NCBI RefSeq assembly: GCF_002113885.1
Contig: NW_018408906.1
Span: 395,033-459,032, forward strand
DNA: 64,000 bases
From: Mizuhopecten yessoensis
Lineage: Eukaryota
Reading direction: 5' to 3'
Each line of letters opens with the position of its first letter. Positions within the stretch are counted from its first letter, which is position 1. Of this stretch, positions 10,776-43,700 are shown in pieces. The notes under the pieces were generated by a model. The model worked only from the letters and a program-made list of their open reading frames with translations, ran no database searches and had not been told where the DNA came from. The translations under genes were made by a program, and so were the position numbers.

Positions 10776-13700
10776 TCTGTGAGGGTACATGCTAACATGT
10801 CCATATCTGTGAGGGTACATGCATGCATGTACATATCTGTGAGGGTTCATGCATGCATGTACATGTCTGTGAGGGTGGATGCTTGCATGTACATGTCTGT
10901 GAGGGTAGATGCTTGCATGTACATATCTGTGAGGGTACATGCTAACATGTACATATCTGTGAGGGTACATGGTAACATGTATATATCTGTGAGGGTACAT
11001 GCTTGCATGTACATATCTGTGAGGGTTATGCTTGCATGTACATATCTGTGAGGGTACATGCTTACATGTATATATCTGTGAGGGTACATGTTAACATGTA
11101 TATATCTGTGAGGGTACATGCTTGCATGTACATGTCTGTGAGGGTACATGCTTACATGTCCATATATTGAGGGTACATGCTTACATGTACATATCTGTGA
11201 GGGTCATGCTTGCATGTACATATCTGTGAGGGTACATGCTTACATGTACATATCTGTGAGGGTTATGCTTACATGTACATATCTGTGAGGGTCATGCTTG
11301 CATGTACATATCTGTGAGGGTGCATGCTAACATGTACATATCTGTGAGGGTGCATGCTAACATGTACATATCTGTGAGGGTTCATGCTAACATTTGTATA
11401 TCTGTGAGGGTACATGCTTGCATGTACATATCTGTGAGGGTTCATGCATGCATGTACATGTCTGTGAGGGTAGATGCTTGCATGTACATATCTGTGAGGG
11501 TACATGCTAACATGTACATATCTGTGAGGGTACATGCTAACATGTCCATATCTGTAAGGGTACATGCTTGCATGTATATATCTGTGAGGGTACATGCTAA
11601 CATGTACATATCTGTAAGGGTACATGCTAACATGTCCATATCTGTAAGGGTACATGCTAACATGTACATATCTGTAAGGGTACATGCTAACATGTCCATA
11701 TCTGTAAGGGTACATACTAACATGTACATATCTGTGAGGGTACATGCTAACATGTCCATATCTGTAAGGGTAGATGCTTGCATGTACATATCTGTGAGGG
11801 TACATGCTAACATGTACATATCTGTGAGGGTACATGGTAACATGTATATATCTGTGAGGGTACATGCTTGCATGTACATATCTGTGAGGGTTATGCTTGT
11901 ATGTACATATCTGTGAGGGTGTATGCTTACATGTATATATTTGTGAGGGTACATGCTAACATGTATATATCTGTGAGGGTACATGCTTGCATGTACATGT
12001 CTGTGAGGGTATATGCTTACATGTCCATATATGGAGGGTACATGCTAACATGTACATATCTGTGAGGGTTATGCTTACATGTACATATCTGTGAGGGTCA
12101 TGCTTGCATGTACATATCTGTGAGGGTACATGCTAACATGTATATATCTGTGAGGGTACATGCTAACATGTATATATCTGTGAGGGTACATGCTAACATG
12201 TACATATCTGTGAGGGTGCATGCTAACATGTACATATCTGTGAGGGTGCATGCTAACATGTACATATATGTGAGGTACATGCTTGCATGTACATATATGT
12301 GAGGTACATGCTTGCATGTATATATCTGTGAGGGTACATGCTAACATGTATATATCTGTGAGGGTACATGCTAACATGTATATATCTGTGAGGGTACATG
12401 CTAACATGTACATATCTGTGAGGGTGCATGCTAACATGTACATATCTGTGAGGGTGCATGCTAACATGTACATATATGTGAGGTACATGCTTGCATGTAC
12501 ATATATGTGAGGTACATGCTTGCATGTATATATCTGTGAGGGTACATGCTAACATGTATATATCTGTGAGGGTACATGCTTGCATGCACATGTCTGTGAG
12601 GGTACATGCTTGCATGTGCATATATGGAAGGTACATGCTTGCATGTACATATCTGTGAGGGTACATGCTTACATGTACATATCTGTGAGGGTTATGCTTA
12701 CATGTACATATCTGTGAGAGTCATGCTTGCATGTACATATCTGTGAGGGTGCATGCTAACATGTACATATCTGTGAGGGTGCATGCTTGCATGTACATGT
12801 CTGTGAGGGTACATGCTAACATGTCCATATCTGTGAGGGTACATGCTTGCATGTTCATATCTGTGAGGGTACATGCTAACATTTATATATCTGTGAGGGT
12901 ACATGCTTGCATGTACATATCTGTGAGGGTTCCTGCATGCATGTACATGTCTGTAAGGGTAGATGCTTGCATGTACATATCTGTGAGGGTACATGCTAAC
13001 ATGTACATATCTGTGAGGGTACATGGTAACATGTATATATCTGTGAGGGTACATGCTTGCATGTACATATCTGTGAGGGTTATGCTTGTATGTACATATC
13101 TGTGAGGGTGTATGCTTACATGTATATATTTGTGAGGGTACATGCTAACATGTATATATCTGTGAGGGTACATGCTTGCATGTACATGTCTGTGAGGGTA
13201 TATGCTTACATGTCCATATATGGAGGGTACATGCTAACATGTACATATCTGTGAGGGTTATGCTTACATGTACATATCTGTGAGGGTCATGCTTGCATGT
13301 ACATATCTGTGAGGGTACATGCTAACATGTATATATCTGTGAGGGTACATGCTAACATGTATATATCTGTGAGGGTACATGCTAACATGTACATATCTGT
13401 GAGGGTGCATGCTAACATGTACATATCTGTGAGGGTGCATGCTAACATGTACATATATGTGAGGTACATGCTTGCATGTACATATATGTGAGGTACATGC
13501 TTGCATGTATATATCTGTGAGGGTACATGCTAACATGTATATATCTGTGAGGGTACATGCTTGCATGCACATGTCTGTGAGGGTACATGCTTGCATGTGC
13601 ATATATGGAAGGTACATGCTTGCATGTACATATCTGTGAGGGTACATGCTTACATGTACATATCTGTGAGGGTTATGCTTACATGTACATATCTGTGAGA

Positions 13701-16490
13701 GTCATGCTTGCATGTACATATCTGTGAGGGTGCATGCTAACATGTACATATCTGTGAGGGTGCATGCTTGCATGTACATGTCTGTGAGGGTACATGCTAA
13801 CATGTCCATATCTGTGAGGGTACATGCTTGCATGTTCATATCTGTGAGGGTACATGCTAACATTTATATATCTGTGAGGGTACATGCTTGCATGTACATA
13901 TCTGTGAGGGTTCCTGCATGCATGTACATGTCTGTGAGGGTAGATGCTTGCATGTACATATCTGTGAGGGTACATGCTAACATGTACATATCTGTGAGGT
14001 TACATGGTAACATGTATATATCTGTGAGGGTACATGCTTGCATATACATATCTGTGAGGGTTATGCTTGTATGTACATATCTGTGAGGGTACATGCTTAC
14101 ATGTATATATTTGTGAGGGTACATGCTAACATGTATATATCTGTGAGGGTACATGCTTGCATGTACATGTCTGTGAGGGTACATGCTTACATGTCCATAT
14201 ATTGAGGGTACATGCTTACATGTACATATCTGTGAGGGTTATGCTTACATGTACATATCTGTGAGGGTACATGCTAACATATACATAACTGTGAGGATCA
14301 TGCTAACATGTATATATCTGTGAGGGTACATGCTAACATGTACATATCTGTGAGGGTGCATGCTAACATGTACATATCTGTGAGGGTACATGCTAACATG
14401 TACATTTCTGTGAGGGTGCATGCTAACATGTACATATATGTGAGGGTACATGCTTGCATGTATATATCTGTGAGGGTACATGCTTGCATGTATATATCTG
14501 TGAGGGTACATGCTTGCATGCAGATGTCTGTGAGGGTACATGCTTGCATGTGCATATATGGAAGGTACATGCTTGCATGTACATATCTGTGAGGGTACAT
14601 GCTAACATGTACATATATGTGAAGGTTTAGCTTACATGTACATATATGTGAAGGTTCATGCTTACATGTGCATATATGTGAAGGTTCATGCTTGCATGAA
14701 CATATCTATGAGGGTACATGCTTGCATGTACATGTCTGTGAGGGTACATGCTAACATGTACATATTTGTGAGGGTTCATGCTTACATGTGCATATATGTG
14801 AGGGTACATGCTTGCATGTGCATATATGTGAGGGTACATGCTTGCATGTGCATATCTGTTAGGGTAGATGCTTGCATGTGCACATATGTGAAGTTACATG
14901 TTTGCATGTACATATCTGTGAGGGTTCATGTTTACATGTGCATATATGTAAGGAAACATGCTAACATGTACATATCTGTGAGGATTCATACTTACATGTA
15001 CATATATGTGAGGATTCATGCTTGCATGTGCATATATGTGAGGGTACATGCTTGCATGTGCATATCTGTTAGGGTAGATGCTTGCATGTGCACATATGTG
15101 AAGTTACATGTTTGCATGTACATATCTGTGAGGGTTCATGTTTACATGTGCATATATGTAAGGAAACATGCTAACATGTACATATCTGTGAGGATTCATA
15201 CTTACATGTACATATATGTGAGGATTCATGCTTACATGTGCATATATGTGAGGGTACATGCTTGCATGTGCACATATGCGAGGGTACATGTTTGCATGTA
15301 CATATCTGTGAGGGTTCATGCTTACATGTGGATATATGTAAGGAAACATGCTAACATGTACATATCTGTGAGGGTACATGCTTACATGAACATATTCGTG
15401 AGGGCACATGCTTACATGTACATATCTGTGAGGGTTCATGCTAACATGAACATATCTGTGAGGGTACATGCTTGCATGTGCACATATGCGAGGGTTCATG
15501 TTTGCATGTAGTACATATCTGTGAGGGTTCATGCTTACATGTGCATATATGTAAGGAAACATGCTAACATGTACATATCTGTAAGGGCACATGCTTACAT
15601 GTACATATATGTGAGGGTAGATGCTTACATGTACATATCTGTGAGGGTACATGCTTACATGTACATATCTGAGGGTACATGCTTACATGTACATATCTGT
15701 GAGGGTCATGCTTACATGTACATATCTGTGAGGGTACATGCTTACATGTACATATATGTGAGGGTAGATGCTTGCATGTACATATCTGTGAGGGTTATGC
15801 TTGCATGTACATATCTGTTAGGGTACATGCTAACATGTACATATATGTGAGGGTACATGCTAACATGTACAAATATGTGAGGGTACATGCTAACATGTGC
15901 ATCTATGTGAAGGTTTAGCTTACATGTACATATATGTGAAGGTTCATGCTTACTTGTTCATCTATGTGAAGGTTTATGCTTACATGTGCATATATGTGAA
16001 GGTTCATGCTTACATGTGCATCTATGTGAAGGTTCATGCTTATATGTGCATATGTGTGAGGGTTCATGCTTACATGTGCATATGTGTGAGGGTTCGTGCT
16101 TACATGTGCATATGTGTGAGCGTTCGTGCTTACATGTGCATATGTGTGAGGGTTCATGCTTACATGTGCATATATGTGAAGGTTCATGCTTACATGTGCA
16201 TCTATGTGAAGGTTTAGCTTACATGTACAAATATGTGAGGGTACATGCTAACATGTACATATATGTGAAGGTTCATGCTTACATGTGCATATATGTGAAG
16301 GTTCATGCTTACATGTGCATCTATGTGAAGGTTCATGCTTACACGTGCATATATGTGAAGGTTCATGCTTACATGTACATGTGTGTGAGGGTTCATGCTT
16401 ACATGTGCATATGTGTGAGGGTTCATGCTTACATGTGCATCTATGTGAAGGTTCATGCTTACATGTGCATATATGTGAGGGTTCATGCTT
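10776..16490. repeat. 30-bp tandem satellite (TCTGTGAGGGTACATGCTAACATGTACATA), ~190 units with higher-order blocks
   Basis: Directly visible. Identical blocks recur at offsets 1189 (11868/13057) and 981 (12731/13712). Confidence 0.97.
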
Positions 16491-17673: not shown

Positions 17674-18981
17674 TTAGCTCACCTGCCCGAAGGGCAAGTG
17701 AGCTTATGTCATGGTGCGTCGTCCGTCGTCTGTCGTCCGTCCGTCCGTCTGTCTGTCCGTCGTCCGTCCGTCCTCGTCCGTCAACTTTTCCTTTAAACAA
17801 CTTCTTCTGAAGAACGGACAGGCCTAGATCCATGATATTTGGCTGAAAGCTTCGTTGGTAGGAGCCCTACAAAGCTTGAGAATGAAAATGACCTTGACCT
17901 GTTTTCAAGGTCACAGGGGTCAAATATGTCAAAAACTTCAAACGACTTCTTCTGAAGAACTAAAAGGTATAGAATCTTCATATTTGGCTGATGGCTTCCT
18001 GGGATAGAGCCCAACAAAGTTTGAGAATGAAAATGACCTTGACCTACTTTCAAGGTCACAGGGGTCAAATGTGTCAAACACTTCAAACGACTTCTGCTGA
18101 AGAACTGAAAGGTATAGAATCTTTATATTTGGCTGGTGGCTTCCTTGGATAGAGCCTGACAAAGTTTCAGAATGAAAATGACCTTGACCTTCTTTCAAGG
18201 TTGCAGGAGTCAAATGTGTCAGACACTTCAAACGACTTCTTCTGAAGAACTGAAAGGTATATAATCTCTATATTTGGCTTGTAGCTTCCTAGGAAAGAGC
18301 CGAACAAAGTTTGAGAATGAAAATGACCTTGACCTTCTTTTAAGGTCACATGAGGCAGATATGTCAAACACTTTAAACGACTTCTTCTGAAGAACTGGTA
18401 GTTATAAAATCTTAATATTTGGCAGGTGGCTTCCTGGGAAAGAGCCAAACAAAGTTTGCGAATGAAAATGACCTTGACCTACTTTCAAGGTCACAGCGTT
18501 CAAATATGTCAAACAGTTCAAACAGCTTCTTCTGAAGAATTAAAAGGCATAAAATTATAATATTTGGCTGGTGACTTCCCGGGATAGAGCTCACCAAAGT
18601 TTGCAAATGAAAATGACCTCAACCTACTTTAGAGGTCACAGAGGTCAACAACATTTTAATGGATTTGTTCTTGAGAACTAAAAGGAATGGATTCATAAGA
18701 TTTGGCTGGTAGCTTTTTGGAATAGAGCTAACCAATTTGAGAAGGAAAATGACATTGACCTACTTACAAGATCACAGGGAAAAATATGTCAAGCAACTTC
18801 TGAAGAAGAATCAAAAAGCATAGAATCTTATAATATTATTTTGCTGGTAGTTTCAACAGATGGAGCCAACAAAGTTTGTGAGGGAAATATTTTTAGTGCA
18901 ATATAATATTTAATGAGAATATTTTGCTATGACTGCTTAAATATTCAGGTGAGCGATACAGGCCCTCTTGGGCCTCTTGTT
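17674..18981 (+). mobile_element. Non-autonomous Helentron/HINE (DINE-1/pearl-type) element with internal 145-bp tandem repeats
   Basis: 5' TTAGCTCACCTG plus hairpin, a (CCGT)n microsatellite, ~7 core units of period 145, 3' CAGGTGAGCG and terminal hairpin AGGCCCTCTTGGGCCT, with TT termini. Confidence 0.85.
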
Positions 18982-22788: not shown

Positions 22789-25094
22789 GGTGTCTTCCCA
22801 TTTATCCAACTTCTGAAAAAAGCTATTCCCATTTATCCAACTTTATGTTTTATGCCCTGTGGGTATGTTTGTTTAGTAGTATATTTTAATCATTAGGTGA
22901 AATAACCAAGACAAATTGTTCCATGGATAGAGGGAAAAGTATCATAGAGTGGATAAATTTATTTAATTTTAATTCATTTTGAAAGGTGAAAGTATGTATA
23001 AAATATTCATGAGAAATATGAACAGTGTTAAAGAAGCACCCAAGCCTTTTTCTACTAATTTATTCATAAATTTTGAATACTACTCACTAAGTATCCCAAG
23101 CTAGTTTTTAGCTTATAAGCACTGACCCACTGACAAAATTCATTCTTCAAGTTTGACCATGGCGAACGCACAAGTAAGAGTAGACTACATTCGACATGCT
23201 AGAGGCCACTACTTAGCTGTAAACGGCTACAGATATGTGATTAAGACCAGAAAACAGGGTAGAGATGCAGAACTAGCCTACTGGAAGTGCGCCGAGAAAG
23301 ATTGCCCAGGCACAGCCAACACCAGAGACAACATGGTAACCAGATTTCCTAGAGACCACAACCACCCGACAACTCGTGCTGACATAGATGCCAAGAAATT
23401 TCTAGCAACACTCAGAGAAAAGGCAGCCAAAACTCTGGAACCACTACCCGCATTGTACGACAGCGAGATCATCAAATTCAGAAACAGAGAATGGGACGAT
23501 CACACACACCAGGTCGTTGAACAGATACCAACTTTCGTCAGTACCAAATCAGCTATGTACCGAGAACGCAACAGTGAACTACCACCACTACCAACCACAC
23601 GTGATGCCATTAATCTCCTGGGAGAATGGCAAGAGACTACTACAGGAGCACAATTCCTACTAGCAGATGATGGTGACCACAACAAGATCCTGGTATTTGG
23701 TACTACAGACAACCTCCGCCATCTAAGTAACGCTGACATGGAACTTTTTACGCCAGTCCTGTACTTTTCACCCAGCTGTACACACTGCATGCACTCATAG
23801 ACGACGAGATGTACCCACTAATATTCGCCTTCCTACCTGACAAATGCCAGATCACCTACCAACGCCTATTCGAGATCGTTAAGACAGCAGCAGCAAACAA
23901 CAACACACCACTCAATCCAACCACTATATTCCTCGACTTCGAGTCTTCAGCCCGTAACGCAGCAGAGACAGTCTTTCCACAAGCGTCGATCAAAGGTTGT
24001 CTATTCCACTACTGCAAACGCATATGGAGAAAGGTACAGAAACTTGGACTAGCAGACCAGTACACCAACGACAACCTACTCAACCTACATATAAGACGAG
24101 CTTCAGCATTGCCACTAGTCCCCATCAACCAAGTAGATGATGTATGGTTCCACGCAATTGAAGACTACGAGACCGATGACGCAAAGATCACCAAGTTCAA
24201 CGACTACGTTACTGAGCAATGGATCGGGATGGAGACAGCAAAATGGAACCACTACTCAACAGTTGGACCCAGAACAACAAACCATTTAGAAGGATGGCAC
24301 CACAAACTCAACAACCAACTTCACAGAGCACACCCAAACCTCTACGTCATCATCGAAAAACTCAAGCACACTCAAGCAGCAAATGAGATCCGACTTATCC
24401 AGTATGCAGCTGGTGGCACTAGAAAGACAAGAAAGCTGAAATACAGAATCCTAGACTCCAGACTTCAGCGACAGAAACAACGACTCATTCAAGGGGAAGT
24501 TGACATCTACCAGTATACAGACACAGTGTCACGCCTGCTGAAACTTCAATGAACTGATATGACTCTATAATATTCGATTGATATAGTGCTTTGCTTAATT
24601 CAAATATTTTAAATATGAAATTTACTATACATTGTAACTTTTCTATCATGTAAAATGATTCATATTCCTATCATCTTATTTCTAGTGCTTTATATCAATT
24701 TATGAAATAAATATTATTTTGTATCATTTTGTATATTTAATAATTAATATGTCTGTTAATAATATATATGTCTGATATTATTTGAATAAATATATTGAAA
24801 ATAGAAATTAGTCTTATTGTGAAAGCATATATCATAACTACAGAATCAATAAAAAAACCCACACAAATAAAAACAAAATGAAGCATTCAAATCAACTTAA
24901 TAGAAATAACTTTGAATATAGATACACATTTCCAAAAGGACTTAATTTCTGTATCATATTTTTAACCCAACACTTGACCCAAGCTCCAATTAGTGTTTGT
25001 TGTTTTAACAATATACCCTATTCCCACTTATCCAACCCAAACTTTTTACCTGTAGTACCTATTTTTCAAAAAGTTGGATAAATGGGAATGAACC
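22789..25094 (+). mobile_element. Full-length Mutator-like (MULE) DNA transposon
   Basis: Imperfect TIRs GGTGTCTTCCCATTTATCCAACTT / AAGTTGGATAAATGGGAATGAACC. An 8-bp TSD GTAAATTG lies at 22781-22788 and 25095-25102, and there is an internal transposase. Confidence 0.9.
23159..24552 (+). pseudogene. FLYWCH + MULE DDE transposase, frameshifted at ~23737
   Basis: FLYWCH: YWKCAEKDCPG...HNHP. After the frameshift: GTFYASPVLFTQLYTLH...YPLIFAFLPDK...DFESSARNA...GCLFHYC...TTNHLEGWH. The D of DGTF has been removed by the deletion. Confidence 0.88.
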
Positions 25095-28904: not shown

Positions 28905-29787
28905 AGCGTAACCCCTGGATGTCGAGGATGGGTCAACCCCTGGATATCGAGGATGGGTCAACCCCTGGATGTCGAGTATGGGTCAACCCCTGGATGTCGA
29001 GGATGGGTCAACCCCAGGATATCGAGGATGGGTCAACCCCTGGATATCGAGTATGGGTCAACCCCTGGATGTCGAGGATGGGTCAACCCCTGGATATCAA
29101 TGATGGGTCAACCCCTGGATGTCTAGGATGGGTCAACCCCTGGATGTTGAGGATGGGTCAACCCCTGGATGTCGAGGATGGGTCAATCCCTGGATATCGA
29201 GGATAGGTCAACCCCTGGATGTCGAGTATGGGTCAACCCCTGGGTGTCGAGGAGGGGTCAATCCCTGGATATCGAGGATAGGTCAACCCCTGGATGTCGA
29301 GTATGGGTCAACCCCTGGATGTCGGGGATGGGTCAACCCCTTGATATCGAGGATAGGTCAACCCCTGGATGTCGAGGACGGGTCAACCCCTGTATATCGA
29401 GGATGGGTCAACCCCCGGATGTCGAGGATGGGACAACCCCTGTATATCGAAGATGGGTCAACCCCTGGATATAGAGTATGGGTCAACCCCTGGATGTCAA
29501 GGATGGGTCAACCCCTGGATATCAAGGATGGGTCAACCCCTGGATGTCTGGGATGGGTCAACCCCTGGATATCGAGGATGGGTCAACCCCTGGATGTCGA
29601 GGATGGGTCAACCCCTGTATATCGAAGATGGGTCAACCCCTGGATATCGAGGATAGGTCAACCCCTGGATGTCGAGGATGGGTCAACCCCTGGATGTCGA
29701 GGATGGGTCAACCCCTGTATATCGAAGATGGGTCAACCCCTGGATATCGAGGATGGGTCAACCCCTGGATATCGAGGATGGGTCACC
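28905..29787. repeat. 25-bp tandem repeat (GGATGGGTCAACCCCTGGATRTCGA) x~35
   Basis: Directly visible and homogeneous. Confidence 0.95.
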
Positions 29788-30746
29788 TCAAAACAAAGGA
29801 TCACGAACTGACGCTCAATAATGGAAACGTCCATTGCAACATGCATTATTTACATATCTTTGTTTTGTTTGTGTATAATATTATCAGTGAAATAAGACAT
29901 CATAACTTTATGTCTTGTGCCACTTACACCAACTTTTGTATCTGCCAAAGTACTACTACAATAAAACCGCAACTTTCAAAATCAAGCGCGGATTTCTCAA
30001 TAGAAATCTTCCGCTCTGAATACATTCTTTAAGAATGAAAGGTTGGCGATTTTGCTTTAATGAAAGTGAACTGTTTGATATCATATTTTCACAGTACTAG
30101 TTCCAAAGTCTAACAATATCGCTAAACATCATAAGTTAAATGATATATAATATACGTAATACAAAGTCAGGAAATAAAAGCCACTCACCAACACTAAGTT
30201 TGTTTCACAACCTAATGAAACCTTACAAAGCTGTGGTACCCTCACAGCGCAAATAAAAATTAAATACAACATGGATCAAAACCAAACCCCCCCCCCCCCA
30301 AAAAAAAAAAAAAAACAGAACAAAACATGAAATGACGCATAATGATCAACAATGTAAATGAAGTAAGGTAGCGGCCGCATTGACATATAATATGATCTTA
30401 CCTTTCTGTATTACATGGATATAAGGGACAGATTGACGTCATTTCCTGTGATACCATGTAACGCCTACATGCTAAAGTGTTCACACATATAATGAATTAA
30501 TATACACAGGTATATACTATGTTTTTATGATATATAACGACACCAGATTAAAGTCAGCGATACCTTAGTTTCATTTCTCACAGAGGTAGGATCCATAGAC
30601 AATAGAATCCGACATTTCCCTGTGGTCGTAACTATTTCCTTTTTATGAATGTAATCGAGAGTGATGTACAACTCTCAATGTTGTATGCTTAACGAAGTGA
30701 TATCTGCCATGGAAATGCATGTACAATCAATTTTTCCAGAACTTTT

Positions 30747-30907
30747 TTAATCGCTCCAGTAGGGACACTTCGCGCATGCATAGTGTTCCTGACATCGCCC
30801 GGAAAGTCCAGGAGCCTCCAACTGAGTACAGTTGTTCTCAATGCACTGGAACAACATCTTCGTTCGCTGCTTTTGACCAACGATTGGTGGATTGGCAGGC
30901 ACCGAGT
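30747..30907 (-). CDS. ZNFX1-derived gene, last coding exon (8): A20-like zinc finger CIENNC-x11-CQEH
   Basis: Acceptor TTTTTCTCAG, phase 1. Reads DSVPANPPIVGQKQRTKMLFQCIENNCTQLEAPGLSGRCQEHYACAKCPYWSD*. Confidence 0.7.
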
Positions 30908-31410
30908 CTGAGAAAAATAAAACTACTTGTTGAAATTTTGATGTTTTTTTTAATGATTTTTAAACCAACGAACGTGTTTATGACGTCACAGTACCCACAT
31001 CGGGACACTTGAAGGAAAAAGTTGCAAGAAATTTGTATGCTGTGCAAAAAAAGTATTTTTAAATTGATAATATTGATTTAAAGATGTTTATATACCAATA
31101 AACATTATATGAACTTTATTTACTGCCACTCATGGTTACAATCACAGTTTTAGTTTGTATATAATGACGAAAATGTAACGTTTTAAATTTATGCGCAACG
31201 CGACGTTATTAATTTTCATTTTTTGTATGTGATTTTTCACAATCCTATTATTTCAAAATTATTGGTAGATTTGTAACATATATAATTGTTCTTTGCTTAA
31301 ATCAACTAAATACCTTGGTCTGCCATGTCATTTCGCCTCAAAGTTTAGATAACATTAGAAACAACTTTAAGTTTATCTAAGTATAATTGGAGTTCAGTAA
31401 GAAAACCTAC

Positions 31411-31545
31411 CTGTCTCCGATTCTATCTGAATCCTATCGTTTGTCTTTTTCAATTCTGTTTCTACTTCCGGTGCGGATTGTGAGTATTTCGGTCTAACAG
31501 GCTTCACATCTGGTCTTCGGTATTCTTCGTATGAAGACGTAATTT
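31411..31545 (-). CDS. ZNFX1-derived gene, exon 7 (phase 1-1, 135 bp)
   Basis: TTTTAG acceptor, GTAGGT donor. Open frame ITSSYEEYRRPDVKPVRPKYSQSAPEVETELKKTNDRIQIESET. Confidence 0.72.
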
Positions 31546-31958
31546 CTAAAATTGAAACAAAGACTTGCAATATTTTTCGTTAAAACGCAAGTGTCATTTC
31601 AGTTTATTTTGAAATGGAGAGTGAATTAACAGAAATCCAAACCCTAGCGTTCATCTTGTACACTGTAAGCCATGTATATGATCTATATGTAGCAAAAGGG
31701 ACTTGGGACAAAGAAATACGAACTTTTCTGAGGTATTCACATACTTGATCTTCGTATAAATTTCGATGAAAATCTGTTGCGAAATGAAATCAGTAGAGTC
31801 ATGAATGTATGTATCGCCTTGTTATAGGACGGAACTTTTTTGGGGAAAAAATAAACAACAAACAAAATGCATTTTGATTTAGAACAATGTAAAATGGAAG
31901 CTCGAAATTAGAGAATATGGACGAGGTGGATGAAACACAATAGCAGATGAAGACCTAC

Positions 31959-32156
31959 CAGTTTTAACGTCCGTTTGATGAGTAAAGTACGCCTTTCTCC
32001 ATTCTGAGTCTGCTGGACGTGACGTTGGTTTTGCAGCATGTTCAACAGGTTTAGGGTCTGTCAACTGATAGCCGGCGGGTTTGCTTTGGAAACGGCTAAT
32101 CCTATCCCTAACTGACCTCGTTTCAATTTCCATAGACTCTTCAGATCTTGTAGTTT
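31959..32156 (-). CDS. ZNFX1-derived gene, repeat exon 6 (GYQLTDPKPV)
   Basis: GATAG acceptor, G|GTAGG donor, 198 bp, phase 1-1. Paralogous to exons 4 and 5. Confidence 0.68.
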
Positions 32157-32296
32157 CTATCAATTTAAATTTTGTGTAAATGTGAATAAACTTACTTTCG
32201 GTTGATTTAATATATCAAACGCCATCGATATTTGTACGCGTCATTTACGACATCATTTCATGATTTTGAAACGTAATAATGACAATGAAAACCTAC

Positions 32297-32509
32297 CCCT
32301 CTTAACGTCCGTTGTAAGGATAAAGCACGGCGGTTTCATTCCTACGTCTGCTTGTTGTGACGATGTGTTTGCAGCTCGCATAACAGGTTTAGGATCTGTC
32401 CACTGATAGCCAGTTGGGTTGTAATGGTCACCATCGATCACTTCTTTTCTAGAGGGGACACTCATTTTCCTAACCGCCTCCTTATTGATGTCCATTGCCT
32501 CTTCAGCTT
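32297..32509 (-). CDS. ZNFX1-derived gene, repeat exon 5 (GYQWTDPKPV)
   Basis: GATAG acceptor, G|GTAGG donor, 213 bp, phase 1-1. Confidence 0.68.
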
Positions 32510-32793
32510 CTATCCATTAAAATTTTGAAGATGGAAAAATATTTTTTAGTTATTTTATAAATCAAACAACATATCGATATTCATTGGTTATATTTTCCAC
32601 AAAGAATTGGGATTTTGCATAATAATAATAACCGTTGAAATCCTATCCATGTTGACGTCCGTTTGAGAGGGGATGAACACCTGTATTAGTTCTGTGTCTA
32701 TAAAAGAATTTAATTATATGCTTTTAGTTATCAAACCGATGTTATCGATATCCAGGGTTCCTTTTACTTTAACAATGATCAATGATGACCTAC

Positions 32794-33015
32794 CAAGCTT
32801 CCTGTCGGTTTGAGAGGTAAAGGAAGTCTTTCTTAATCCGGCGTCTCCGTGTGTAACATATGTTTGCCCTACCGGAACAACAGGCTTAGGGTCAGTCCAT
32901 TGTAACCCGTAGGAGTTGATTTGGGCACGGCTTATCACATCTTCTCTGGTGGAGGGAGCCATGCTCCTAATGGATTCTCTATTCGCTTCCGTAACCTCTT
33001 CTGATTCTATAACTT
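32794..33015 (-). CDS. ZNFX1-derived gene, repeat exon 4 (GLQWTDPKPV)
   Basis: GATAG acceptor, G|GTAGG donor, 222 bp, phase 1-1. Confidence 0.68.
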
Positions 33016-33178
33016 CTATCAATTCAAATGTCGAAGAACAAAATTATTTATAACCTTGTGTTGAACAAATCTAAACTAAACACCACCGTAATTTGCATTT
33101 CACATTTTCGTCAAAATTACGTTAAGAATATTGCATTGAAAATAGTCTCGTAAATGATCAGGGGAATATATAAAATAC

Positions 33179-33328
33179 CTTTTGTTTCTGTGGTTGCCCT
33201 GTCGTTAGGGATGTTCAGAATGGATAGAAGATCTGCTCTATGAAGACACCGAGGAACTACACCTGAATAAGGTGATGTTCTCAAGCGTTGTAGAGATTCT
33301 CTGTCGTACGATATCCTTACTGATGAGC
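33179..33328 (-). CDS. ZNFX1-derived gene, exon 3 with 4E-BP-like motif RISYDRESLQRLRTSP
   Basis: TTTGTACAG acceptor, AG|GTATT donor, 150 bp, phase 1-1. Reads GSSVRISYDRESLQRLRTSPYSGVVPRCLHRADLLSILNIPNDRATTETK. Confidence 0.72.
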
Positions 33329-33731
33329 CTGTACAAAGAAAATGCCGACTTATGCCAGAGTTCTCTCAATAAATGCTGTGTTACTGTTAACGTACACATT
33401 TTAGCGGTACTTTTATTACAGCGCTTTCAGTATTGCGTTAAATTATGATTGCACTAATCGACGTTTCTTTAAATAGTTTTCTATACTACATATTGTGAAT
33501 GCTCCTATTCATCAATCCGCTAATCCGTAAAAAAATTAATCATGATACGCTAAAATTTGAGTCTGCAAAAAGAAGTACTTTATATTCACTATTTTATTTC
33601 AAAAGCATTCTGTTTGCAATTATCTTAATCGAACCACTTCCTCCATAGATTCTTGGTTAAAATGTGTTTCAATAAATATTAGAAATGGCTATGAATTTGT
33701 TTTCTCTTGTTTATGGGACAAAATGTCCTAC

Positions 33732-35374
33732 CTGAATTGGTCCTCTCCGATGTATTCATCTTGCGGTCAGTGCACTTCTCGAAGCAAGGAACATGTAAGC
33801 GTCCTTGGAAACAACCTCCACATGTTCCAGAACAGGGATGACCGCAATCTAATTTAGTAGTGCACTTTTCAGTGCAAGAGAAGTCTTCAATTCTTTGGTA
33901 ACATTTGCACTGTATGAAGTGTCCACAAATCAATTTGCGCTGAATGAGCTCTGGACATTGAATCTGGTGGGTGTTGTATTCTTTACACTTTCCACAAGTT
34001 CCGCTGCATATGTGACCACAAATCAGCTTTTTCTCGCATTTTGACCGACACTTGAAACTGTGGGGATCCTGATGACATGGGCCTAATTGCTCGTGCCTGC
34101 AAACTGGAATAGTCTTGATAATGTTCTTCATGCATTTCCCACACTCTTCCCAGCATTTCTTAGTGCAAACATGTCCTTTATCGCAAACCTGAGCACATGG
34201 CTTCAAACAACGGTATTTCTGATGAGCACTGTCAAAGATATGACAATATTGTTCACAAACATGACCACAAGGTAGACGTGTTTCACATGGTGTGGTACAG
34301 CCTCCATTTGGTGTCTCATTGAATTGCAGGTCCTTCAGATCAGGCAGTATCGGAAGTTCTCTGAAATTGTTAGGGGGAGGCAATGATTCCATGTCTCTAT
34401 GATTCCGTCGGCCACCAGGTTGAATGTTTTTATCTCTTCTTTGGTTGTCAATGTCCTGTACAAGTGTTTTCATAATTGTAGATACATCATTAATCAATTC
34501 CAAAATATCTGGATTCTGTTGTAAATTGAATGTATGGTCCTCAGCAATAGCATCTAACATCAACACAGCACTACTAACAGTGTGGACCTCCTGTGGCATT
34601 CGTTGCATCAACTCTTTCATTATCTTGCAGACATCTTGAATTATGCACTGAAGATGGTAAGGGGGCATCACAGCAATCCTGGACTTGATTTTTGCAAGGA
34701 ATGTGGTCACTTGAAGCATCATGACATTCTCTTGAACCATTAATCCCACTAATTGTAACTTGCTGTGGCTTTTAGAAGAGGAGCAAGCTTTTCCTAGTAC
34801 AGATAGAAGCAATCTACTCCAGTCGATCTGCATGTTAATGTTCTTTAATAGAGTTTGAAATCCACTACTTTCCAACAGTAATTCCATTAGAACATCATCT
34901 GAATTGGTCTTTTCACTGAGCTCACTGAGTTTCCTGTAGCCAAACATTCTTGGTGGTCTGGAACGAGTATCATTTCTTCTTGGTCTCGAACTATCACGGT
35001 ATCTAGCATTAGTAGCATCTTGTACATCCTCATTTCTGTTTGGTACCGTATCCAATCTACTGAGAGAAGAATATCTTCGGAGGTCAGCAGCTCCTCGAGT
35101 CAATCCACCAGATGCTCCTCGAGTCAATCCACCAGATGCTCCTCTAGACCCGCCTCTTCCACCCCTACTGCCTCGTCTTCGGCCATCTCCTCTATGTCCT
35201 CTCTCTGCATTACCGCCTCTGCTTTCACTTCTACTCTGAGAAGACTCAGGGTTTCTTTGGTGTCCTCCTCCTGGACCGCTGGATCTGCCTCCTTGTCTGC
35301 TATTCCTTCTTGTACCATTTGTATTTTCTGTTTCATCGTCATCAAGATTGAGAATTCTTAGTGGGCCTGTTCTG
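33732..35374 (-). CDS. ZNFX1: ZNFX1-like (NFX1-type zinc finger-containing protein 1 paralogue), large exon 2: RGG-rich region, helical N-domain and NFX1 zinc fingers; helicase absent
   Basis: FGYRKLSELSEK..DDVLMEL and PPNNFRELPILP are ZNFX1 N-terminal motifs. GGCTTPCETRLPCGHVC and the repeated L.CGH.C are NFX1 fingers. The frame is open upstream of the ORF-track start to the acceptor CTAACATTTCAG (phase 2); the donor is G|GTAGG. Confidence 0.85.
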
Positions 35375-35473
35375 CTGAAATGTTAGACGTTCTATGTTCA
35401 GAGGTGTTGAGTGCTTGAGCAAGTCAACTCACACAGACATTGTTCTAAAGATAAGTGTAAATATTATTACATC

Positions 35474-37690
35474 TGATTTTCTGTCAGATCCTAGGATATG
35501 ATTACTGTCACCCCTAGGGTATGATTTCTCTGTCAACCCTTAGGCATGGTTTCTCTCTCACCCCTAGGATATGACCTCTGTCACCCCTAAGTTATGATTT
35601 CTCTGTCATCCCTAGGATATGGTTTCTCTGTCACCCTTAGGGTATGGTTTCTTTCACCCCTAACGTATGATTTCACTTTCATCCCTGGTATATGATTTCT
35701 ATCAACCCTAGGGTATTGTTTCTCTGTCACTCATTCAGGTATGATTTCTCACGCTCTCTAAAACGATTCCTCTGTCAACTCCTAGGAAATGATTTCTCTG
35801 TCACCCCTGGTATATGATTTCTAGCAACCCTAGGGTATTGTTTCTCTGTCATCCCTAGGGTATGATTTCACTGTCACTCACTGTGTAATGATTATCCCTG
35901 TCAGCCCCTAGGGTATTATTTTTCTGTCAGCCCCTAGTGTATGATTTCTCTGTCAGCCCTAGATATGCTTTCTGTCAACCCTAGGGTAAAGTTTCTCTAT
36001 CATCCCTAATATATGATTTCTGTCACCCCTAGTGTAGGGTGTCTCTGTCACCCCTAGGTTATGATTTCTGTCAACCCTAGGGTATGGTTTCTCTGTCAGC
36101 CCTAGGATATGCTTTCTGTCAACCCTAGGGTAAAGTTTCTCTGTCATCCCTAATATATGATTTCTGTCACCCCTAGGGTAGGGTGTCTCTGTCACCCCTA
36201 GGTTATGATTTCTGTCAACCCTAGGGTATGGTTTCTCTGTCACCCCTAGGATATGCTTTCTGTCACCACAAGGTTATGATTTCTCTGTCACCCCCTTATA
36301 TATGATTTCTGTCACCACAAGGTTATGATTTCTGTCACCCATAGGATATGATTTCTGTCACCCCTAGGGTATGATTTCTCTATCACCCCTAGGATATGAT
36401 TTCTCTAACCCCTAGGTTATGATTTCTCTGTCACCCCTAGTATATGATTTATGTCACCCCTTCTCTGTCACCCCTAATATATATGATAACTATCAACCCT
36501 GTGGTATGGGTTCTCTGTCATCCCTTCAGGTATGATTTTCTCACCTCTGTCACCCCGAGGGTACTGTTTCTATGTCACCTTCTAGGGTATGATTTCTGCA
36601 TCTGACGCTAGGGTATGATTTATCTGTTACCCATTAGGGTATTTTTTTCTGTGCTATTAGGGTATGATTTATCTGTTACCTATTAGGGTACGATTTTTCT
36701 GTGTTACTAGGGTATGATTTATCTGTCACTTACAAGGATACGATTTTTCTGTCACCCCTCGGGTACAGGGAATGATTTCGCTGTCACCCATAGGGTATGA
36801 TTTATCTGTTACCCACTAGGGTTTAATTTTTCTGTGTTACAAGGATATGATTTCTGTCAACCCCTAGGATACGATTTTTCTGTCACCCCCTCGGGTACAG
36901 GGGATGATTTCGCTGTCACTCACTGTGGAATGATTTTCTCTGTCAGTACCTTAGTTATGATTTCTCAGTCACCCAATAGTATGGAATGATTTTCTCTGTC
37001 ACTCACTGTATAATAATTATCTCTGTCAGCCCTTAGGGTATGATTTATGTGTCACACCCTAGGGTTTGATTTCTCTTGTTACCTTCTAGGGCATGATTTC
37101 TGTGTCACCCCACAGTGTATGACTTCTTTGTCACCCCCAAAGGTATGATTTCTCTATCACCCACCAGAATACGATTTCTCTGTTACCTGCTAGCCTCTTC
37201 CCCCCCCNNNNNNNNNNNNNCCCCAACCCCTACCCCAACCCAACCCAAACCCAACCCAGGTATGATTTCTCTGTTAGCCTCTAGGGTATGATTTCTATGT
37301 GTCCCTCTAGGGTATGATTTCTCCGTCACCCTCTAAGGATATGATTTCTCTGTCATTCTTTAGGGTATGATTTCTCTGTCACTCGCTAGGGAATGATTTC
37401 TCTCCCTTTCTCCCTAGGGATTGATTTCTCTCCCTTTCCCCCAGGGAATGATTTCTCTCCCTTTCCCCATAGGGAATGATTTATCTGTCACCCCCTTTGG
37501 TACGATTTCTATGTCACATCTAGAGGACTTTTTCTCTGTCTCTCTGTCTCTGGTACGATTTCTATGTCACACACTAGGTTGTCATTCCCTAGGGTATGGT
37601 TTCTCTGCAACCACCTTTGAGTAGGTTTTCTCTCTCTTCCCCTAGGGAATAATTTCTCCACCCCATGTGGTACGATTTTTCTGACACCCC
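35474..37690. repeat. 23-25 bp minisatellite in intron 1 of the ZNFX1-like CDS
   Basis: Same unit family and order of variants as 1-4600, but shorter. Confidence 0.95.
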
Positions 37691-37813
37691 TATGTATAGT
37701 ATTCCTTAAATCGTTGTCAAACCGTTACTGTCATATTCTGACAAAGACCTTTTAAAAATATACATTTCTAACGCGTTAAAACATGTATGTTGAACTTGTA
37801 TTTAGCCACTCAC

Positions 37814-37851
37814 CTGCCAGTATTGTTGCCATACTCATCGTCAGAATCCAT
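37814..37851 (-). CDS. ZNFX1-derived gene, first coding exon (MDSDDEYGNNTG)
   Basis: Exon 37814-37906 is bounded by TTCCAG and GTGAGT, with an in-frame TAG before the ATG. Its phase 2 matches the acceptor at 35374. Confidence 0.7.
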
Positions 37852-38977
37852 TGTCTATTTGACTGCCATCTATGTAAGTCAACTAGCTCCTTCAGCATCT
37901 AAATTCCTGGAAAAATGTAAAACTATAAATTACACTAACACATGAACAGCGTACGTGTATTTGCAATGTATTTTAAGTGATTTATCAAGAAGCACTGCTT
38001 AGAAATGGGAGGGAATGTGTGTCATTTTATACATTCAACTGTCTGACTTGTCGCAATGAAAGCTTAAAAGATATAAATCCTGTTCAAGTTGTTGAAGAGC
38101 TGGGGTAAAATGTCTCATTGCGTGGACACTTGACTACCTTTGAAACACTGCCCTACATTTTTCCATATATGTGACCACAAGACCCTTTAAAAACATAATA
38201 GGCCTACAACATTATCGTAAAAGGCACACTACTCCCAAAGGCCATTCAAAATTTACAATACAGCACTTCCGCATTACGTGGGGTAAAAATGGCCGCGAAA
38301 CTTAATTGCAGCTAAAGTTGCCTGGTATATTTTTTGGCAATATATGTCCACCTACCCCTCCGATGCATAGATCATTTACTCCACAACCTTACCTTATATG
38401 GAACATTATCTTATATGGAACATCATCATATTTCCCCAGGCTTACCCACTTAACTCCTCAAACATTATAATACAACATTTTCGCTTTAATCGTATTTGTA
38501 TGGTACCCTTCCTAATTTCAACCCCAGCCGCTTCACTCATTCACCCCTGGAATTTAACAATAGACTTTCCCATGTATTGTTTTGGAAGAGTCTGAATGTG
38601 ACATCCAGTGGATTACGTCAATACACAGTGAGTAGATATATAGTGCAAATTGGCCTAGCGATCTAAAATTATATTACTTCCTTAATTGCTGATCAGGATG
38701 AAACGAAGATCCACCGATTTAGCTATTAACTATATATAACTATATAAGATAAGATATTGATTGAGCATTGTATGATATAAATATGCAATATTCAATTCCT
38801 TAATGGCTTCAGTCATTTCAATGCAAGGTTATATAATCATTTACCTACCCTACAGTCTGTCTGCGGCTGCACCGGAACACGCACGGATACAATATAGCAC
38901 CTGATCACACGTCACAAATAATTGACCTGCAGAAAAACCAATTCCTGCAATTCTGTTAAACACACTTCAAAAAGGGT

Positions 38978-38989
38978 GGTTTCGCTTTC
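38978..38989 (-). promoter_or_regulatory. ISRE/IRF-E-like motif GAAAGCGAAACC upstream of the ZNFX1-like gene
   Basis: Consensus match, ~1.1 kb upstream of the ATG exon. Confidence 0.4.
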
Positions 38990-39865
38990 TCTTCAACGTA
39001 TATATACCTTATTTCTTGAAATCGTGAACTCTGTACGTATAGCTATGTTTTTGAATGCACCGTTTTGATGTACGTATTGTAATGAATACACAAGAGCACA
39101 CAGCACCTAACCAATCAAGACAATGGAAATATTTCTACATTGTACGACGGGTTCCGCGTGAAACCACAGTGCTGAGCACACAAAATCTATTTTGTTACGT
39201 GTAATGAATGCTAATTAAGTTATGCCTATGCATGCGCACCAGTGTTTCCTACGAAAATCCTTACGATAGGAAATAGCTTTGAGTCAGGGAACGTTCCTTA
39301 TTTCAATTAATTGAAAATTACTGTCAAGTATGGCGTATATTTAAAATTATTGAATACAAATATAAATTATTGCACATATATTTACATTTATTGAATATTA
39401 ATATAAAATTTCGAACATACATATAAAATTGTTGAATATTGCAACGTTTGACGCGCCATACTCTTGCACATGCATGCCCGTGTTTCTCATTAAATGATAT
39501 ACACAAAAGTATTGAATAATCATTCGAAGTATGCCTTAAGCATTTTTTAAATATGATTGACTGATGCCAGACGAATTTCTGCTAACTCTTGATGTATTAA
39601 GTTCATACGTTATTTTGCTACCAATCAGTAGGTGAAATATTCATTAATCCAAAGGGAGTGTGCATTATTTTGCCGTGTGCTGTTATAGTTAGGTTTTGAT
39701 AATAATGAAACAAACTCTGTCAACTTATATTATGTTAATATTTCTTGTAGCTTCGAATTGAAGAGGGTGTTCTTTATGTGAGAGGAGAACACTCACGTGG
39801 TCGGGCAAGTGGTACAAAACCTTTACACTTTGGATCGGGGAATTGAACCTCGCCCGTCTTGGTGA

Positions 39866-40030
39866 AATTTGGTTTGGTTTGGTTTGTTTGTGTTTTACCT
39901 CCTATTAACAGCTATGGTCATTTAAGGACGTGCCAGGTTTTGATGGTGGAGGAAAGCCGGAGTTCCCGGAGAAAAACCACTGACCGACGTACAGCCATTA
40001 TGCCTGGCAACTGCCCTAGGCAACAGCGGC
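39866..40030 (-). mobile_element. SINE 3' fragment with (CCAAA)n tail
   Basis: (TTTGG)n tail plus a GGAAAGCCGGAGTTCCCGGAGAAAAACCAC core. Absent from the left duplicate. Confidence 0.55.
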
Positions 40031-40864
40031 AACTCTATAGGCCAGAGACTTGGAAGATTGCTACAGCATGAAATAATCTAAAACTACGCGTGCATGCATG
40101 TAATTAAATCAGACTTACAGCAAACCAGCACGTCCTTTACGTGGACTAAAAGTAAAGACCGCAATCGGAATCACAGGGACCTGAGAATTTGTTACAGCCT
40201 TATTTGGACCTAAAATAAGGTGGTCAGAGTAATTTCACACGTTCAATGGGTTTAGATCATCTTTCGGTAAAAACAAAATGCCACCCCAAATGACCGAAAT
40301 TTGATATAAACCCATAAAACGCATTTTTTTTTGATGAACACCTTAGTTAAGGTTCAAATATATATATATAGCTGTAACAAATTATCAGGTCCCTGTAATC
40401 GGAATTGGGACTAATGCACTCGAATCTGATTAAGAGGATTTTAGGTTTTGTATAAAAAAACACCGATATAGATCTATACACACAGTATGATTGCAGACTA
40501 CGAATGAAGTTCCCCATTATATTGAAACATGAAATCGGGAAAGGTTTCCACTCACATACGAAATCATTCAATGACATGGTTTCTAGTACAGAATACAAAT
40601 TATATACACCAGACGCAGCAATTCGGTTACAAAGTAAATACACATGTTAATATACAGTGTTGACCAACAATCAGCTGTTCATATTCGCATTACTGTTACA
40701 TGTATGCATTGCGTATGCATGTGTCATAATTATGGAACGCAAGAAAATACATAATCTACATATTTGAATCTGTTTGTACAACTGTGCGTGTATTGCCAAT
40801 GCAGTTGGTTGAGAAAAAGAGTTAGATAATCTATATAAAATTCCTACAATTAAATGAATGTACA

Positions 40865-41220
40865 TGTAACAGGAAAGAGAATAGTGTGCTTTCACCGGGG
40901 ATCGAACCCGTGATCCCTAGCTTGGTTCCTAGTCGAAGCTAAAAGTATATGGACAATTAAAATCTGCCACACTACTCTCCCCTTTTTAATGTGTTCGCCC
41001 TCGAACACCACAACCCAGGTTCTAACTCCCTGTCACCACAGGGTGGGCCACGGACACCATTTGTAACTGGAAAGAGAAGTGTCCTTCCACCGGGGATCGA
41101 ACCCGCGATCCCTCTGTTCCTAGCTATAGTCGACGCTCTACCACTGAGCTAAAGGGAAATTCCCTCTAGCTCGAAGCTAGGAGGCGAACGTAATCCTATT
41201 TACAATTAAAATCTGCCACA
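40865..41220 (-). mobile_element. TRIM (miniature LTR element) with tRNA-like LTRs
   Basis: Minus strand: LTR 41220-41062 (TGTGGCAG...GTTACA), PBS-like TGGTGTCCG, ~90 bp interior, PPT AAAAAGGGGAGAGTAG, LTR 40971-40865. Confidence 0.78.
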
Positions 41221-41784
41221 CATAAAATAATTTAAGTCCCCTATATTCTTCTATCTTCTTCTTCCGTCTGTTAGTGTCCCAAGATTTTTTTTTACATTTA
41301 GAACTTGATTTTTATTATTCTCTCAAAAGTATCCGCAACGAACATCTTCCGGCTACTTCCAAAGCCACCACTGTTAGTTAGATCTTACTTTTTAGCTGGG
41401 AGCCTAACGTGAGATCATTGCAATTGGCTAATAGAGATTTTGTGTCATTTAGGGTAATTCTTGTGACATTCTGGATGATTCTTGTCATATTTTTGAGGGA
41501 TTTGGTTAATTGGTCTAGCCAGTCGAGAAGGTTTTACGGAATATTATTAAAATATCCGTTTATAGTAAAAAAAACAACAGCGGCCTTCTATAATATATTT
41601 TTTTTTTATCTCAAGCACGTAATATGAATAAATGAATAAATTTGAAATTATTCATTGAGATATTAGATATGTTTTCTTTTTCTGAAATGAGGAAATACAA
41701 AAATATTGAAAGCTATACAATAAATATATGGTGTACGGTAATTATATAAGTGTAAGGACAGTGAGTGTGCGACCAACGGGTCTC

Positions 41785-41911
41785 TATGATGGCGGTTATC
41801 TCCCTTGCTATGACGATCTTCAGTGTAAAGGAAGAAAATGGTGTAAGCCGGTTGACCGACGATGTTCCACACATGGTTTCAAGGATACTTTGCGTAATTA
41901 TTTGTTTCTGA
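41785..41911 (+). promoter_or_regulatory. Probable promoter/non-coding first exon of ECSIT (duplicated at ~8565-8691)
   Basis: YY1-like ATGGCGG and AAAATGG motifs and a GAG|GTAATT donor. The next acceptor TTTTCCAG precedes the ECSIT ATG exon. Confidence 0.35.
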
Positions 41912-43436
41912 GGTAATTACCAGTTTATACCGGTTGTCACGACAATGAACATACTATTTGTATGCATAAATGTTATTTTCTCGAAATTGATTTCAGCCAT
42001 ACAGTATTTTGTCTCAGCACGTGGGAGATCTCGACTTTCCATTCCAGGTTTGGGATGACATATGAAGATGGACCGACCATCGTTTTAGGGAATGTCCCTG
42101 TTTAAAGCGACAAAACTATTCGAGGTAATATCGCTGTTTACAGTGACAAAAATGCCTTGCTTCACATTCTAGAATAAAAATACATATAATATGCTTTGTA
42201 GTAATTTTCTTGAAACATACACATATTCAGGTATTACCATTGTAATAGGACGAGGAATAGTGATAAAGATAGTGCCGTCACTGGGGCTCGAACCCGCGAC
42301 CCTTGGCTCTCCAGTTACTGCTGAGCTAAAGGGAAACTCCCTACAGCTGACACTTGTAAGGCTACCTAAGCAATGCTCATCTTTTACACCAAAAGGTGAT
42401 AGTAATCCTGCAGTTAGATAACAGTTGCCTGTTCTGACATGAAGAATTATTACTCAGGCATGTGGGAGGTTGTGCCCACCCTCATAATAAGGGTTTCAGA
42501 CGATTCGTCACCAAATCTGTTCTGTCCCAAGCTTTTTTGCTCCATTTTACTTCATAATGCTCAAAAAAAATCTTCCCAAAAATTCCTAACGCCCTTAAAC
42601 TGTTTAGACAACCACTTCAAGAATCATCCTGTAGTTTATGACATTGAAACTCAGCTTGTTGAATAATCGCCTGCATTCAGAATAATCATAAGGTAAAAAA
42701 AATATGTAACAAACCATCATTATTACCCCAAAAAATTGTTCATTTTTCAGTTTGCATAGATGTATTATTGTTTATTCAGGCAAATGAATCATAATAGTTT
42801 TTTTGGGTGATATGGGCATTGGCTAAATTTGGGCAATATAGATGTCAATTTGGATTGAAATAAGAATACATTTTGGGTGTTAGTTAAAAAATCACTTTCT
42901 AAGTAAACGAAGTAGATTCTATAGAAAAGATATTGTTAAAAAATGTAGTAGATACAAAAATTGAAATAATTTTGAAAACATCTCATCAAGACACTCTTAC
43001 ATTATTTTGGACATTACAAGTATCACAGTATGTAATACAGCATGTGTCCTAAACTTATTACGACAAATGCAGTACATGTAAGTACTTGGGCTGTCACAAT
43101 ATATTGGAAAACCTGTACATCGCATATCATATCATATCGCAATACACAAATGAAATGTTGTTGTATTGCAATAATTTTCAAAATCTTGTTTTTATGAATT
43201 ATGCTAGGTGCTTTTAACCTTACAAACTCCATTGTACTACATATTGTACCAGTTATGCCAATAACCATACACAGGCTATATTTGCGGTGGAAATCAGTTT
43301 AAATTTCATAATTGATGGTTTGTATAGCGATTTAAATCTTAATTAGCATCTTTTTCCAATGACAATATCGGATACGTATCGCAATATATGTGTATTGCAA
43401 TATATTGTGATATACTCCAGGTATATTGTGACACCT

Positions 43437-43700
43437 GGGCCCATATTCATGAAACCGTTCTCATGCTCAAGCATGGATTTTGTGCTCAAACCAACATTCT
43501 TGTAACTCACTTAAATCATGTCAAACGATCAAAACGTCAAATGAAAACATTGAAAACAGTATTTGACTTTAAGTCTCTTCAAAGTTTTTCCAAATCATTG
43601 AAAAAATAAAATTTTATTATCAAGTTATAACCGGAACAAGAAATTAGACTTGAGCACAAATTCCATATTTGAGCATGAGAACAGTTTCATGAATACGGCT
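43437..43700. mobile_element. MITE with ~50 bp TIRs (PIF/Harbinger-like)
   Basis: CCCATATTCATGAAACCGTTCTCATGCTCAAGCATGG... versus ...CCATATTTGAGCATGAGAACAGTTTCATGAATACGG. Confidence 0.7.

Follow-up and report, generated by a model that had tools for sequence, protein, structure and literature searches.

The window, a 64,000-nucleotide stretch of Mizuhopecten yessoensis DNA, contains on its minus strand an open reading frame of 567 aa (33679-35382) that reads PPNNFRELPILPDLKDLQFNETPNGGCTTPC in a single open frame with no intron or frameshift. ORF residues 140-545 are 100% identical to P0002, the 918-aa isoform X2 of NCBI LOC110466995 from the same species. Using tblastn of P0002, an exon model was rebuilt with eight coding exons between 37851 and 30747, all introns being GT-AG. 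The start-codon exon, MDSDDEYGNNTG, lies at 37814-37851 (-), and the loose end of an RNA contig at 35375 corresponds to this exon. A 25-bp tandem repeat array at 35474-37517, detected with Tandem Repeats Finder, fills intron 1. The ORF, tblastn and the exon model agree on a large coding exon at 33732-35371 (-), followed on the same strand by an exon at 33179-33328, three tail exons within 31959-33015 (33015-32794, 32509-32297 and 32156-31959) and the last two exons within 30747-31545 (31545-31411 and 30907-30747; alignment and exon model). Pfam recognized neither the ORF nor its pieces, and gave no hit in P0002.

A search among longer proteins recovered P0038, a full-length ZNFX1-like paralogue of 2567 aa from the same species, together with full-length orthologues in Pecten maximus and Argopecten irradians. 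P0002 corresponds to P0038 residues 1-365, 1428-1610 and 2189 onward, with identities of 96.7, 92.5 and 92.9%, respectively. LOC110466995 is a duplicate of an intact full-length ZNFX1, 93-97% identical to this parent in the parts that it keeps. Within the large exon, these are a low-complexity Arg/Gly-rich N-terminus (copy residues 14-153; 34951-35370, -), retained in the alignment with the parent and two other scallops, the ARM domain (copy residues 154-318; 34456-34950, -), and an NFX1-type zinc-finger stalk (33769-34314, -) that aligns with parent residues 1428-1610. The ARM domain characteristic of ZNFX1 was recognized by phmmer matches to human 9EVE and 9Q9Z, by structure modeling and by Foldseek, which answers the objection that the N-terminal part might not be ZNFX1-homologous. 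The stalk follows the PxGGC motif and spans 183 parent residues with all of their Cys and His.

The region upstream of the copy is itself duplicated. Self-blastn aligned a block at 37621-43676 with a same-orientation counterpart at 4533-10775, with patchy substitutions of 0.4-6%, and tblastn and self-blastn located a second, identical start-codon exon at 4725-4763 (-), which we ascribe by inference to the full-length parent. The 25-bp repeat array of intron 1 also recurs behind this second exon 1, at 107-4479. No helicase match was found in the 64-kb window, and the parent probably starts at the 4763 exon with its body beyond the left edge of the window. Since exon 1 is duplicated and the records of P0002 and P0038 each lie on a contig of 1,081,373 bases, the parent appears to adjoin the copy on the left. 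Divergence of the block by segment ranges from 0.4% near exon 1 to ~6% further out, a patchiness that suggests gene conversion around exon 1. An ECSIT gene (PF06239; 44288-46400, +) lies just beyond the duplicated block, head-to-head with the deleted copy, and a FLYWCH and MULE transposase (23126-24552, +), in two reading frames, lies between the duplicated blocks. Large tandem arrays occupy 10776-16490, 17791-18800, 57003-58199 and 28910-29785; they comprise one 30-bp type (~190 copies), two related 145/146-bp types and one 25-bp type, and several medium-sized ORFs within tandem arrays are repeat artefacts.

At the first of two internal junctions, parent residues 366-1427 (1062 codons) are lost in frame, and with them PF25396, AAA_11 and AAA_12. 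The parent Walker A (620) and EEAA (1150) motifs fall inside the deleted stretch, and the UPF1-like SF1 helicase is absent from the copy. A phmmer comparison with human ZNFX1 (PDB 9Q9Z) aligned ORF residues 125-358 with chain residues 208-438 and ORF residues 352-436 with chain residues 1365-1450, so that ~930 human residues are skipped between adjacent codons of the copy. The earlier note had described a precise excision of the entire helicase by an in-frame genomic deletion with no intron or frameshift at the junction; the alignments to 9Q9Z and to P0038 bear out the loss of the whole region, and one unbroken minus-strand frame runs through the junction. The word precise overstates the case, since C1409/H1412 is lost as well, a CxxH pair that 187 of 188 long homologues carry shortly before PxGGC; the first zinc site is therefore likely halved.

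The exact join also differs from the one first described, which placed a shared Pro codon at ~34309. Alignment to P0038 and public-run contigs define a 3-nt microhomology, AGA, at 34314-34316 (-), two codons earlier. In the parent, FNERP stands on the left side of the cut and FSKTP on the right side; T and P of the copy both derive from the latter, which makes the join FNE|TP, without a shared Pro. Contigs from four of the 21 listed sequencing runs (X1, X8, X14 and X17) were compared with the window over 30600-35450. An 806-base contig stops precisely at 34314 in each of X1, X8 and X17; in X14 and X17, the helicase sequence of the parent attaches behind 34316. These positions give the overlap AGA. 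The left side of the junction was deduced from where the contig branches and from the Arg codon, rather than from printed parent letters. A contig of X14 covering 34258-35119 bridges the junction, with six other letters that differ, not all of them listed. X14 and X17 show spliced joints and practically no intron cover, and on these grounds we regard them as RNA, the listed run kinds being guesses. A 25-base pattern beside junction 1 had no matches in metagenome contigs.

A second deletion, unnoticed in the earlier note, lies in the same exon. At this junction parent residues ~1611-2188 (578 codons) are lost in frame, a segment containing the later zinc fingers, a Miz/RING-like motif and a degenerate RZ-like region. 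Parent DCTH (1732), CPTC (1764) and RWQKC (2004) lie inside it, and the Miz/RING-like and RZ E3 module is absent from the copy; P0038 itself gave no Pfam RZ hit. Alignment to P0038 and contig branch points define a 3-nt microhomology, CAC, at 33770-33772 (-). Contigs end at 33772 in X1 and at 33770 in X17, and in X17 the parent sequence leaves before 33770 and arrives behind 33772, giving the overlap; support for this junction consists solely of these branch points in X1 and X17. In X8, a 1208-base contig with window alleles (33770-33976) passes junction 2 unbranched into other sequence; either simplification of the contigs removed the link, or deletion 2 is different in this animal. An allele with the helicase deletion only, as hinted by X8, was considered, and the contig depth of 13.9, equal to the single-copy depth of the run, argues against it.

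At both joins a short identical sequence is present, one copy of it is kept and no bases are inserted. Overlaps of at least 3 nt at both joins would arise with a probability of ~0.003 under random breakpoints. The deletion sizes, 3186 and 1734 nt, presume intron-free deleted segments. Removal of the segments as exitrons was also considered; no possible cut in either overlap starts with GT or GC, and the joins are therefore not splicing products. The suggestion that a microhomology-mediated genomic deletion was retained in frame is consistent with the 3-nt overlap, the missing GT/GC donor, the branch points and the bridging RNA contig, but it was incomplete: the copy duplicates an intact gene and lost its E3 region by a second deletion. 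The copy very probably formed by microhomology-mediated repair as a doubly deleted duplicate, the pathway presumably being microhomology-mediated end joining. Both cuts likely leave half-occupied zinc sites.

The region is duplicated and repeat-rich with N gaps, and the DNA run X8 is unbranched at junction 2, features that could point to an assembly collapse or to a spliced transcript placed in the assembly. Such an origin of the joins is hardly credible given that the RNA contig bridges junction 1, that branch points fall at exact bases in X1, X8 and X17, that introns are kept and that neither cut has a GT/GC donor. X1, X8 and X14 each carry copy and parent alleles together at 33977-34032, as does X17 at 33250/33263. 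As junction 1 is carried independently by an RNA contig and by the branch points of two DNA runs, the assembly collapse that might have explained it away can be set aside. The deleted copy is real and transcribed, with spliced RNA that runs across junction 1.

Thirteen of the 21 listed runs (11 samples from five studies; nine guessed to be DNA and four of unknown kind) hold 0.86-0.93 of the sequence words, where the ceiling for the parent by itself is 0.67, or 0.80 under the lenient assumption that the whole N-terminal part is shared. X18 and X19 hold 0.45-0.49, under the parent-only ceiling, and X20 and X21 hold almost no words; these four are uninformative either way. Because the run list favors holders and may include the source of the assembly, we describe the copy as widespread rather than fixed.

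The product of the copy would consist of the ARM domain, about seven zinc fingers and the tail. At ~25 aa per ZNFX1 finger, as reported for the human protein (PMC13710534), roughly the first seven of twelve fingers would be kept. An AlphaFold2 model of 394 residues from the ARM domain to the fingers had a mean pLDDT of 89.8 and a pTM of 0.50, with values mostly above 90 in the ARM domain and below 50 in the junction linker, and thus predicts two folded modules joined by a loose hinge. Foldseek matched the modeled ARM domain to the human ARM crystal structure 9EVE (target TM 0.77), and the predicted fold of the retained domain is that of human ZNFX1. Compared with ZNFX1 from human (9Q9Z/9EVE) and scallops (P0038, P0039 and P0040), the copy shares the ARM domain, the pre-helicase linker and the first NFX1-type fingers, whereas it has no SF1 helicase (human ~350-1282, offset 87), 1Z insertion, later fingers, Miz/RING-like region or RZ-like region, so that it could perform neither RNA unwinding nor ubiquitin transfer. 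Judged by its sequence, the copy is ZNFX1 by descent, with neither the helicase nor the E3 module that would make it an enzyme.

Among 290 fetched proteins, 175 combine the ARM domain, the helicase and fingers, and the combination of ARM domain and fingers without a helicase was seen only in the query and its own database record. An ARM-only search among proteins of 371-2000 aa returned nothing but P0002. The representative search covered the best 150 of 1531 hits with a bias to finger matches, and both searches are accordingly weak evidence of uniqueness. A 2961-aa protein, P0214, contains the ZNFX1-like unit ARM-helicase-fingers-Miz twice over within a single chain and is a fusion or a merged gene model. 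The literature, seen partly by title or start of abstract, yielded no description of LOC110466995 or of a truncated scallop ZNFX1 paralogue, although the 2022 survey of metazoan ZNFX1 by Blasi et al. may cover it.

To place changes on the copy or the parent lineage, indels were polarized with Pecten and Argopecten, two other scallops. Five coding indels fall on the lineage of the copy: both large deletions and three small ones, of 3 nt (34187), 9 nt (~32506) and 1 nt (30777). Left out of the count was a 6-nt difference at 32001, which lies on the parent side and is missing from two of the four runs. Four of the five are in frame, against nine of 33 non-coding indels (p=0.022), a rough baseline of multiples of three; without the deletion that prompted the finding, the count is three of four (p=0.065). 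It is possible that the small in-frame indels are older than the large deletions and arose in a copy that was then a whole working gene, in which case deletion 2 (1 in 3) is the sole test of frame. The fifth indel is a frameshift nine codons before the stop, by which the last 16 residues of the parent are replaced with nine different residues; in X17 the base at 30777 is present alongside nearby window alleles, so some alleles may lack the frameshift. No nonsense change was found in the copy, for which the chance is 0.10-0.30 with 35-18 changes. Its zinc-finger stalk keeps 32 of 32 Cys and 12 of 12 His, and the 3-nt in-frame deletion at 34187 falls here; the 9-nt in-frame deletion lies near the start of the middle tail exon.

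Among the coding differences listed (74 further rows exist), 19 are nonsynonymous and four synonymous, or 20 and six with allelic ones, corresponding to an omega of ~0.9-1.3, near the neutral ratio. By part, the listed differences divide 6:3 in the fingers and 12:1 in the tail. Amino acids differ at 43 of 907 positions, of which 18 are assigned to the copy, eight to the parent and 17 to neither (p=0.076). Copy ARM changes include S249P and D251Y, two positions at which both outgroups carry the parent residue. Residues 154-248 of the ARM domain show no differences between copy and parent; if gene conversion acted around this locus, this identical core is weak evidence of constraint.

Together, these data make it quite possible, though somewhat short of even, that a young duplicate is decaying here by drift into a pseudogene, transcribed because it took over the promoter of the parent and with a frame open by history and luck, any protein being inert or unstable. 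Such drift would account for the omega near 1 among the differences listed, for the greater number of derived changes on the copy lineage, some of them radical and at conserved sites, and for the frameshifted last exon. It also fits cuts that disregard the borders of zinc sites, an architecture seen in no other fetched protein, and an upstream block that is 94-99% like that of the parent near exon 1 and at the far end. It is less easily reconciled with the four of five in-frame indels, the open frame without stop codons and the full set of metal ligands, or with copy-level word shares in 11 samples.

The exons downstream of the large exon were considered as sequence foreign to ZNFX1, which is ruled out by their match to the tail of the parent itself. 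The three tail exons (33015-31959, -) are mutual repeats of ~72 aa, ~40% identical, which share a Q(W/L)TDPKPV motif that is found repeatedly in the tails of the Pecten and Argopecten proteins; these repeats gave no Pfam or ESM Atlas hit. In the last exon (30907-30780, -), all three scallops share a conserved C-x4-C-x11-C-x2-H pattern; we take its spacing to resemble that of an A20-type zinc finger, and it gave no Pfam hit. The retained exon at 33179-33328 carries a 4E-BP-like motif, RISYDRESL (Pfam PF05456, E=0.011, below its cut-off). Scallop full-length ZNFX1 proteins hold this motif on a separate tail exon (window 33317-33237, -; P0038 2205-2230; P0040 2210-2259), the Argopecten version RISYSREYLM scores E=0.0007 in PF05456, also below cut-off, and the motif pattern was found in no non-scallop protein among those fetched.

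The canonical eIF4E-binding motif is Y-x4-L-hydrophobic. The last position is Gln in the copy, Lys in the parent, Val in Pecten and Met in Argopecten, and with Gln there the copy lacks the hydrophobic residue of the canonical motif. Retention of the Arg/Gly-rich N-terminus and of the 4E-BP-like exon might suggest that the selected part is the tail, acting as an RNA- or eIF4E-binding translation regulator with the ZNFX1 domains as passengers. We consider this highly improbable, given the Gln at the end of the motif, the alteration of three nearby conserved residues in the copy and the preponderance of nonsynonymous changes in the tail among the differences listed.

In other animals, ZNFX1 is an antiviral RNA sensor. 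Human ZNFX1 is reported to form filaments through ARM-ARM, ARM-ZnF4-5 and 1Z-1Z contacts, with the ARM domain also binding RNA (PMC13710534). The ARM-ARM contact is described as the main dimer contact and ARM-ZnF4-5 as the second (PMC13710534; bioRxiv 10.1101/2025.10.14.682297); both polymer types are reported to be built from repeated ARM dimers, and wild-type ZNFX1 to ubiquitylate a catalytically dead form in trans (bioRxiv 10.1101/2025.10.14.682297). The scallop copy keeps the regions of the ARM-ARM and ARM-ZnF4-5 contacts, with neither 1Z nor either enzyme. Because these contacts are kept while the third contact and both enzymes are gone, an enzyme-dead partner is the simplest function to propose.

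We therefore tentatively favor, at slightly below even confidence, a reading in which a transcribed tandem duplicate of ZNFX1, shaped by two in-frame microhomology deletions, may serve as an enzyme-dead, ARM-pairing damper of full-length ZNFX1; this reading and neutral drift are nearly tied. In the proposed model, a tandem duplicate of full-length ZNFX1, probably lying beside its parent, has been stripped of the helicase and of the E3-ligase region by two in-frame deletions at 3-base microhomologies. The transcribed and spliced copy would then make a folded protein that, by analogy with the human structures, could enter ARM-ARM dimers and polymers with the parent, bringing neither a helicase contact nor a ligase partner. 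By occupying ARM sites, it would interrupt helicase-dependent contacts and ligase cooperation and so damp the parent, and it might itself be a passive substrate that the parent turns over. All steps beyond transcription are drawn from human data. The more specific proposal of a natural, lineage-specific ZNFX1 decoy made of ARM domain and stalk, co-expressed with the parent and selected to cap or dilute dimers and filaments, we regard as rather doubtful.

The human ARM domain is also reported to bind MAVS (review PMC11959080), and this, together with its reported RNA binding and the nucleation of polymers by ARM dimers, would allow the opposite effect, in which an ARM domain freed of the auto-inhibited helicase binds MAVS or RNA constitutively or seeds polymers of the parent. 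Activation of this kind is improbable, as the signaling output depends on the helicase and the ligase, both lost, and only one of three human RNA-binding lysines aligns with a basic residue in the copy.

For the favored reading of an enzyme-dead damper, precedents are provided by CARD16/17/18 and POP1, lineage-restricted duplicates lying beside their parent genes that have kept a homotypic domain and lost the enzyme, and are described as non-enzymatic decoys (PMC3775265). Like these CARD-only and pyrin-only proteins, the scallop copy probably adjoins its parent, keeps a near-identical homotypic domain, has no enzyme and is transcribed (X14 and X17). Unlike them, it arose by two internal deletions and keeps a C-terminal tail; there is no common sequence or fold, and its decoy role is putative.

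Transcribed young duplicates and pseudogenes produced by microhomology-mediated deletion are typically tandem, with high identity, short overlaps and near-neutral substitutions. The scallop copy is likewise tandem and highly identical to its parent, with short overlaps at the joins and a near-neutral pattern, but its frame is open across 909 codons through four in-frame deletions.

Recent work has shown that ZNFX1 acts as ARM-linked dimers and polymers that link RNA sensing to inter-subunit ubiquitin transfer, and a paralogue with a near-identical ARM domain and neither enzyme is a ready reagent for the cellular role of ARM dimerization. If neutral, the copy would be a clean case of repeated microhomology deletion remodeling a young immune-gene duplicate, and the locus would also warn of confused read mapping and expression counts for intact ZNFX1. 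If functional, it may be an endogenous brake on the ZNFX1 sensor in farmed shellfish. Were the decoy reading true, the copy would be to ZNFX1 what CARD-only proteins, described as acting in this way (PMC3775265), are to caspase-1.
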